Virus record (IMG/VR): IMGVR_UViG_2529292907_000016
Strand: one strand, 5' to 3'
DNA: 42,684 nt
Source of the DNA: a virus
Taxonomy: Duplodnaviria > Heunggongvirae > Uroviricota > Caudoviricetes
Shown: positions 8,961 through 9,322 of the stretch, piece after piece
How the letters are laid out: each line of letters opens with the position of its first letter
Numbering within the stretch: position 1 is the first letter of the stretch
The notes under the pieces: generated by a model
What the model saw: only the letters and a program-made list of their open reading frames with translations
Database searches by the model: none
Told to the model about the DNA's origin: nothing
Translations under genes and position numbers: made by a program

Positions 8961-9322
8961 GTAAGCTTCCGGGGAACTCATATTGACGCGTTTTTCAGGC
9001 GCGCGTCATCGGCGGCGCATACGAACGATCGTGGTTTGATAACGGTTGATTTATTTTGTTGCACAGAGGCGATCGCCAGGCAGGTACCGGAGGCGGGCTC
9101 TGAAGTACTGAGTAGGGTGATCGCGTCAGGCCGCGAAGTACTGACTCGGGGATTAATTGCAGGTGATGATGTATTGACCCGGGAATGACTCCGGGCTGAT
9201 TCAGGTTCTTATTCGCTGTCAGCCCGCGTGGTTGCTGGTCTGGCTCATTTCCTGCCGTCAGGAGTTCAACTCCCGACTGCAGGTTATGGCCCGGTGCACG
9301 AACACCTGACGGCAGGTATCAC

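Follow-up and report, generated by a model that had tools for sequence, protein, structure and literature searches.

A one-ended array of 33-bp repeats in the right tail of ISEc49 and related IS66-family elements: candidate accessory sites

An IS66-family element in the genome of a virus of the Caudoviricetes (IMG/VR record IMGVR_UViG_2529292907_000016) raises the question of what degenerate repeats with AGTACT cores are doing between its transposase gene and its right terminus. The window, that is, the whole stretch of DNA that was analysed, is 42,684 nucleotides long. A preliminary description, made from the sequence alone, proposed that the repeats could be subterminal transposase-binding sites or a small passenger element.

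The element that carries the repeats is an already known insertion sequence, ISEc49, here complete and 2766 bp long (8961–11726, minus strand). A 3-kb query matches RefSeq features annotated as "IS66-like element ISEc49 family transposase", tnpB and tnpA with 99.4–99.7% nucleotide identity over 2766 bp, and the matches to annotated ISEc49 copies start and stop exactly at 8961 and 11726. The copy in the window is intact: it has all three genes, imperfect terminal inverted repeats (IRR, 8961–8994, and IRL, 11693–11726, both on the minus strand) and an 8-bp target duplication, TACTGCCT, whose right copy (8953–8960) and left copy (11727–11734) match perfectly. Read from inner to outer on the IS strand, IRR is AAAACGCGTCAATATGAGTTCCCCGGAAGCTTAC, according to an alignment of the inverted repeats of 10 elements.

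All three genes are on the minus strand. The product of tnpA (11310–11639, 109 aa) is called IS66 TnpA in homologous copies and shows a weak match to HTH_Tnp_1 (E=0.004), below the Pfam cutoff. This gene overlaps tnpB (10931–11323, 130 aa), which belongs to PF05717 (TnpB_IS66, E=3e-35), and both are located upstream of tnpC in the same orientation, as they are annotated in homologous copies. The DDE transposase of 533 aa encoded by tnpC (9323–10924) contains PF13007, PF13005, PF03050 (E=2.7e-90) and PF13817. ISEc49 thus has what characterizes the family: imperfect inverted repeats of about 20–30 bp which start with GTAA/GTG, the 8-bp target duplication, the TnpC domains, and tnpA and tnpB. It is similar to IS66, IS679, ISEc8 and IS682 in its gene set, its Pfam domains, its GTAA-type inverted repeats and the 8-bp duplication.

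The right tail runs from the tnpC stop codon (9323–9325) to the right tip (8961–9322, minus strand); it is 362 bp long and has no conserved ORF. The preliminary description was therefore correct about the setting, a non-coding tail of about 360 bp between tnpC and the terminus in an IS66 right arm. It also considered this tail long for an IS66 end, which is borne out by two sister elements, from Yersinia (L074) and Salmonella (L075), whose tails measure 60 bp. The gene that follows tnpC of IS682 in L003 begins about 30 bp downstream. Within the IS66 family, a repeat-bearing right tail of 224–364 bp is peculiar to the ISEc49 clade.

ISEc49 is inserted in the baseplate operon of a Mu-like prophage (8497–8960 and 11727–12315), in the same orientation as the operon. 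The insertion replaces the last 8 codons of a baseplate-assembly gene, whose product has 211 aa when interrupted and 204 aa when restored in silico, and parts this gene from the overlapping baseplate-wedge gene, which starts at 8934.

The repeats are real. Three clear units, all on the minus strand, follow one another with an exact spacing of 33 bp. Unit C is nearest to the tip (9092–9117; CCCTACTCAGTACTTCAGAGCCCGCC on the IS strand) and scores 29.0 bits against a 26-nt position weight matrix (PWM) of the unit; unit B (9125–9150; CCCGAGTCAGTACTTCGCGGCCTGAC) scores 32.4 bits, and unit A (9158–9183; CCCGGGTCAATACATCATCACCTGCA), which is degenerate, 23.7 bits. The three 16-mers quoted earlier, GAAGTACTGAGTAGGG, GAAGTACTGACTCGGG and GATGTATTGACCCGGG, are found at 9102–9117, 9135–9150 and 9168–9183, with start-to-start distances of 33 and 33 bp. 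The 42.7-kb window contains just two exact copies of the 10-mer GAAGTACTGA, both of them in the ISEc49 tail.

Further inward, only traces are present. A decayed unit position (9192–9217, minus strand) is located 33 bp inward of unit A, and the homologous place in an element from Serratia (L069) still reads GAGTCAGTACCTGAGTTCCCCG, which scores 10.3 bits and aligns to the IRR of L069 (z=3.1). A weak unit-like match on the minus strand, "unit 0" (9257–9282), lies within a hairpin, 99 bp (3 × 33) from unit A; it scores 12.6 bits on the IS strand, and its equivalents in L068, L071 and L072 score 15.8–20.7 bits. The earlier count of about four units of about 30 bp is thus roughly right, with three clear units and weak or decayed ones inward of them. 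Within the span of 9060–9200 that was given, positions 9060–9091 contain nothing repeat-like.

The match autocorrelation of the tail is maximal at a lag of 33 (0.43), a value equal to the top of 500 shuffle maxima (lags 5–79), and it is also elevated at a lag of 66. In L069 and L009, the autocorrelation at lag 33 likewise equals or exceeds the top shuffle maximum. The head-to-tail periodicity therefore exceeds chance, as it should in a tandem repeat. Tandem Repeats Finder does not call the array in the tail, because the units are too degenerate.

Relatives of the element were fetched after a search with the TnpC protein, from Salmonella, Serratia, Klebsiella, Cedecea, Pantoea and Yersinia; L066 (TnpC 89% identical), a recombined fragment without a tail, was left out as uninformative. 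The 10-bp core TCAGTACTTC and a spacing of 33–35 bp persist in the elements from Salmonella, Serratia, Klebsiella, Cedecea and Pantoea whose TnpC is 57–85% identical to that of ISEc49. These relatives carry two to five units, 90–150 bp from the tip. The consensus of the unit on the tnpC strand is CCCnnnTCAGTACTTCnnnnCCTGAC. Most of the core has an information content of 1.1–1.5 bits per position, compared to 0.0–0.5 for the spacers. In the same comparisons, the four-fold degenerate sites of tnpC are near saturation (0.42–0.62 identity). That the core is kept among paralogous units and across genera at such divergence indicates that it is under selection in paralogous and orthologous units alike. 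The units occur in every long-tailed relative examined and are not coding; they are neither absent from homologous copies nor explained by coding sequence.

The array is limited to one end and one strand. In seven elements, the 26-nt PWM gives 2–6 matches per element, compared to about 0.45 expected, and all the matches of at least 15 bits fall in the right tail, on the tnpC strand; those within coding sequences are few and weak (≤12 bits). No match was found in the 87-bp left end of the seven elements, hence the motif is not shared by both ends. What is found is a motif repeated near one end and conserved in related elements, as putative accessory sites would be.

The 60-bp tails of L074 and L075 contain no units. 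In the TnpC tree, these two elements form the sister group of the unit-bearing clade, and the long tail is therefore derived in one subclade. Since the unit-less sisters have clean or near-clean 8-bp target duplications, IS66-type transposition as such does not need the units.

A protein-seeded scan of species-representative genomes found nothing. Metagenome and viral contigs were scanned for two cores 31–37 bp apart: 21 of the 130 loci carry an IS66-family tnpC, and a few more are tails without tnpC. All these IS66 tails are of the ISEc49 type, and the remaining loci are unrelated simple tandem repeats. At several loci, the adjoining TnpC (32–45% identical) belongs to a distantly related IS66-family element inserted into an ISEc49-type tail. 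Five contigs from lake metagenomes (L096, L158, L171, L129 and L161) have unrelated arrays of GGGGTGATTCAGTACTTCATCACCCC-like units with a 45-bp period.

Of 5,426 complete E. coli genomes, about half contain homologues of the tail, which also occur on plasmids of Escherichia and Shigella. Among 13 non-redundant tails that were aligned, the core of unit C is nearly invariant, and even the remnant of strain K-12 has it. L010 and K-12 have lost unit B as a block of 33 bp; unit A is deleted in L006 and L170, and degenerate in the O103/O145 copies. Natural E. coli copies thus have three units, two units (by two different deletions) or one unit, and the losses are clean blocks of 33–35 bp. The number of units varies between homologous loci, which is the behaviour of a tandem repeat.

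The one-unit copy is the remnant beside IS4 insG in the KpLE2 region of K-12 (L002:3001–3293). It is 293 bp long and joined to a C-terminal pseudogene of tnpC; at about 79% identity, it is present in roughly half of the complete E. coli genomes, among them those of K-12, B and C strains. Two other loci, both downstream of scrR (L007:3001–3345 and L011:3001–3380), have in common a diverged tail with the same endpoint, about 20 nt inside tnpC, beyond which they differ: an hns-like pseudogene is present in one and an ISL3-like fragment in the other.

On three independent occasions, an ISEc49-type tail has received a nested insertion of an IS66-family element: beside unit C (O157/O145), inside unit A (by an element whose TnpC is 32% identical) and at the tnpC stop codon and hairpin (L008). 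The insertions are located at L003:3501–4010, in L005, at L008:3361–3470 and in the tails of L081, L134 and L138. The idea that the units are a preferred target of such insertions was dropped, as three events, one of them outside any unit, are too few. The units do not mimic insertion targets either: nine distinct right junctions of ISEc49 have no unit-like consensus, and CAGTA is present in two of the nine.

The E. coli copies are mosaic. Between the window and L009, the coding region is 73% identical and the four-fold sites 51%, and the identity climbs to 93–98% from ~100 nt before the end of tnpC into the initial part of the tail (positions ~2300–2450 of the IS). A 3′ module at about 8961–9470, comprising the last ~150 nt of tnpC and the tail, is 93–98% identical to that of E. 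coli elements which are otherwise about 72% identical. The tail of the closest TnpC relative, L068 from Salmonella (85% amino acid identity), cannot be aligned to that of the window except for the units. These data imply that the 3′ module has been exchanged between lineages by recombination of co-resident IS66 relatives near the end of tnpC, and the high tail identity among E. coli copies is in part the result of recombination, not selection. The argument for selection therefore rests on the contrast between core and spacers across genera.

These observations bear on a first alternative, in which the units are a relic without function, the decaying product of a right end duplicated in tandem. 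The units are indeed degenerate, their number varies between copies, whole units are lost without obvious loss of the element, sister elements do without them, and much of the identity of the E. coli tails comes from recombination rather than selection. However, the core is kept across genera and among paralogous units while the spacers are randomised, a pattern that neither neutral decay nor gene conversion of whole units would produce, and the limit to one strand and one end holds in seven lineages out of seven. A relic is thus unlikely.

The units may be related to the end of the element itself. In 10 elements, the inner part of the inverted repeats differs between the ends: it reads GTCAAT at the right and GTGAAG at the left. 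The profile of the units aligns without gaps to that of the right inverted repeat: two blocks, GTCAnTA and CACCnGA, fall in register, and 1.15% of column shuffles score as well (p=0.0115). The sequence common to both profiles, GTCA(A/G)T, is the stretch of the inverted repeat which separates right from left ends in 10 of 10 elements. A unit from Serratia, GTCAGTACCTGAGTTCCCCG, falls between the unit and IRR in sequence (z=3.1). However, a PWM of the inverted repeats used without gaps detects no unit, and the similarity between the units and the inner right inverted repeat, which is weak and relies on a single p of about 0.01, is therefore suggestive rather than firm. In Pantoea (L076:4351–4378), an extra, degenerate IRL-like copy is present just inside IRR (local alignment z=5.7), which is consistent with a growth of right ends through duplication of inverted-repeat sequence.

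We consider that there is an even chance that the units of the tail are accessory binding sites for TnpC or TnpA, derived from duplicated sequence of the right inverted repeat. According to this proposal, successive duplications of the inner part of the right inverted repeat, the one used for recognition, would have produced the tandem array of about 33 bp period, and selection would then have retained the short core only (consensus CCCnnnTCAGTACTTCnnnnCCTGAC on the tnpC strand). The cores would be non-cleaved accessory sites for a protein of the element. The candidate is TnpC, which could bind through its N-terminal zinc-finger/leucine-zipper region, or alternatively the small TnpA, with its weak HTH match. 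By analogy with the internal sites of Mu, Tn7, Tn402 and IS21, the sites may mark the right end and help to load or regulate the transposition complex. That a protein binds the units, which protein it is and what its binding does we infer from sequence comparison.

Several observations argue for such sites: the 33-bp periodicity, the core common to several genera, the limit to the right tail and the tnpC strand, the loss of units as whole blocks and the similarity to IRR. Others argue against them. The motif is wholly missing from the left end; the units are 90–150 bp from the tip, a long way for direct synapsis; some copies have one or two units; a spacing of 33–35 bp is not an integral number of helical turns; and the unit-free sister elements have clean or near-clean duplications, while the similarity to the inverted repeat is a single p of about 0.01. 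Of the two readings offered at the outset, transposase-binding repeats are nevertheless the best fit, as a prediction, while a passenger element is unsupported.

Internal transposase sites are present in Mu (L1–L3 and R1–R3), Tn7 (the TnsB sites), Tn402/Tn5090 (the 19-mers of TniA) and IS21 (multiple terminal repeats). As in these systems, the tail of ISEc49 contains several direct copies which weakly resemble the inverted repeat without its cleaved tip, within about 250 bp of the end; they differ between the ends and are conserved in related elements. In Mu, Tn7 and IS21, accessory sites are present at both ends. Those of ISEc49 are predicted, occur at one end only, 90–150 bp from the tip and 33–35 bp apart, and, unlike the sites of the known systems, resemble the inverted repeat weakly (p of about 0.01). 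To our knowledge, IS66 has no ATPase helper.

The array also resembles plasmid iterons, as it has three to six direct repeats of about 20 bp, spaced by about 33 bp, beside an A+T-rich block and GATC sites. Unlike iterons, it is accompanied by neither a Rep gene nor a DnaA box and is strictly tied to the end of the IS; we found no evidence for a replication function of the array. It is similar to minisatellites (VNTRs) in its period of about 33 bp and in the variation from one to three units between homologous copies. Whereas the units of a typical VNTR are near-identical, those of ISEc49 are old and divergent except for the selected core, and Tandem Repeats Finder does not score them.

The sequences that surround the array are relevant to a second alternative, which holds that the units bind a host protein, a nucleoid protein or a regulator, that modulates the activity of the end or transcription across it. 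GATC and CGATCG sites and A+T-rich blocks are typical of host-modulated IS ends, and both are found here. GATC, often as CGATCG, was seen by eye 35–70 bp from the right tip in six long-tailed elements (that of the window, L068, L071, L072, L073 and L076), and is absent from both short tails checked in the same way; in the window, sites of this type are at 9026–9031, 9068–9077 and about 9119–9122. GATC near the tip may reflect a Dam-sensitive end or be the vestige of another degenerate copy of the inverted repeat. The A+T-rich block GGTTGATTTATTTTGTTGC (9044–9062) is invariant in seven E. coli tails and missing from the shorter tails of Salmonella, Klebsiella and Pantoea; when the 19-nt motif is used in a scan, the matches outside Escherichia and Shigella are mostly due to chance. 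A host protein would explain the conservation of the core and its location at a single end equally well. On the other hand, the core, examined by eye, does not fit any consensus of IHF, LexA, DnaA or TrpR that we know of, and, in the metagenome and viral scans, the pattern of two units outside IS66 tails is not in a recognisably similar context. Binding of a host protein therefore seems improbable.

A third alternative places the function of the tail at the level of RNA: the tail would be the 3′ UTR of tnpC, or part of an antisense transcript, and the cores would be binding motifs for a protein or an sRNA, or stability motifs. The tail is directly downstream of tnpC, and a conserved hairpin adjoins the stop codon of this gene (arms at 9251–9267 and 9300–9316, 17 nt long and 94% complementary). 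The hairpin is kept in all 12–13 aligned tails. Both strands of the tail fold slightly better than shuffled sequences (z=−2.2 and −2.4), an effect driven by the hairpin. Moreover, many units have GTCAG...CTGAC arms, which could form a small stem.

The evidence against RNA is as follows. The tail has no Rfam match at E≤1, the covariation term of RNAalifold is about zero on both strands (+0.16 and −0.66), and neither a promoter-like nor a terminator-like site was found in the tail. The variants of the hairpin are more often wobble-compatible on the plus strand, with 97.9% of the cells paired, than on the tnpC strand, with 90.4%, and this asymmetry (7 versus 3 variant types in favour of the plus strand) is not significant. 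In the aligned tails, two-sided compensatory changes in the hairpin amount to none on the plus strand and one cell on the tnpC strand, and no U-tract follows the hairpin on either strand. About half of the units do not have the CTGAC arm, and the small stem is therefore not conserved, although the asymmetric core is. The CCCGG...CCGGG palindrome mentioned in the preliminary description is present in the tail (9178–9195, with arms at 9178–9182 and 9191–9195), its left arm being the CCC flank of unit A; it is conserved solely in the E. coli group, without covariation. A known or structured RNA over the repeats was thus rejected for want of an Rfam match and of covariation, and a role of the tail as an RNA element has a small probability. 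As a more exotic variant of the accessory-site proposal, the tail may be transcribed, with the repeated cores acting at the RNA level.

That a small passenger or miniature element of the MITE or REP type is lodged in the IS would account for the unusual length of the tail and for tail copies without adjacent tnpC, which exist in N767, pMS6198B and K-12. However, these solo tails retain the tip of the IS and the last codons of tnpC, and they are therefore truncated ISs. The repeat block lacks both inverted ends and a target duplication that would be its own, the solo tails are not flanked by inverted ends, and the array is at the same place throughout the clade, as an integral part of the tail. 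No miniature element made of the left end plus the tail was found in 5,426 complete E. coli genomes. The passenger was rejected on these grounds as very improbable.

A coding repeat, that is, a small ORF with an 11-residue repeat, was rejected as scarcely credible: 33 bp correspond to 11 codons, one plus-strand frame is open over 8919–9188 and some records annotate hypothetical proteins here, but this frame begins outside the IS, the annotated ORFs vary in position and frame among records, the array contains indels of 1–7 bp with no frame conserved across homologues, and no reading frame can survive a spacing that takes the values 33, 34 and 35 bp among relatives. The "hypothetical protein" ORFs that public records place in the tail are mutually inconsistent (e.g., L008:3053–3397 and L009:3205–3348) and are probably annotation artefacts.

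The reading of the units as accessory sites for a protein of the element is thus also favoured because the alternatives that invoke coding sequence, an Rfam family, covariation, a promoter or terminator, or a MITE fail. A more specific form of it can be put forward tentatively, in which a subclade of IS66 has acquired a one-sided, multi-site right end, an array derived from the inverted repeat and bound by TnpA or TnpC. If so, the array could possibly define the identity of the end or set the transposition frequency, for example through loading in cis or titration of the transposase, a reading that we regard as less likely than not.

In the literature searched, we found no description of subterminal sites or repeats in IS66, or of tail transcripts. 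The conserved, one-ended 33-bp array thus appears to be undescribed there, while its architecture is of a familiar transposon-end type, and it would be a modest addition to what is known of IS66 ends. If the units are inert, they are merely a descriptive point on the evolution of IS ends. In practice, knowledge of the array helps to avoid the mis-annotation of spurious "hypothetical proteins" in the tail, and the polymorphism of one to three units, together with the recombining 3′ module, can serve to type ISEc49-like copies.

Elements of the IS66 family are widespread, in pathogens as well as on plasmids, yet how they transpose and what TnpA and TnpB do is poorly understood. The one-ended array, with its resemblance to the inverted repeat, offers a defined stretch of DNA with which to study binding and the effect of deletions. 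How the element distinguishes its two ends, or how its activity is regulated, could be explained by such an array. If a one-sided array is indeed bound by TnpA or TnpC, the enigmatic accessory proteins of IS66 would gain a concrete DNA target.
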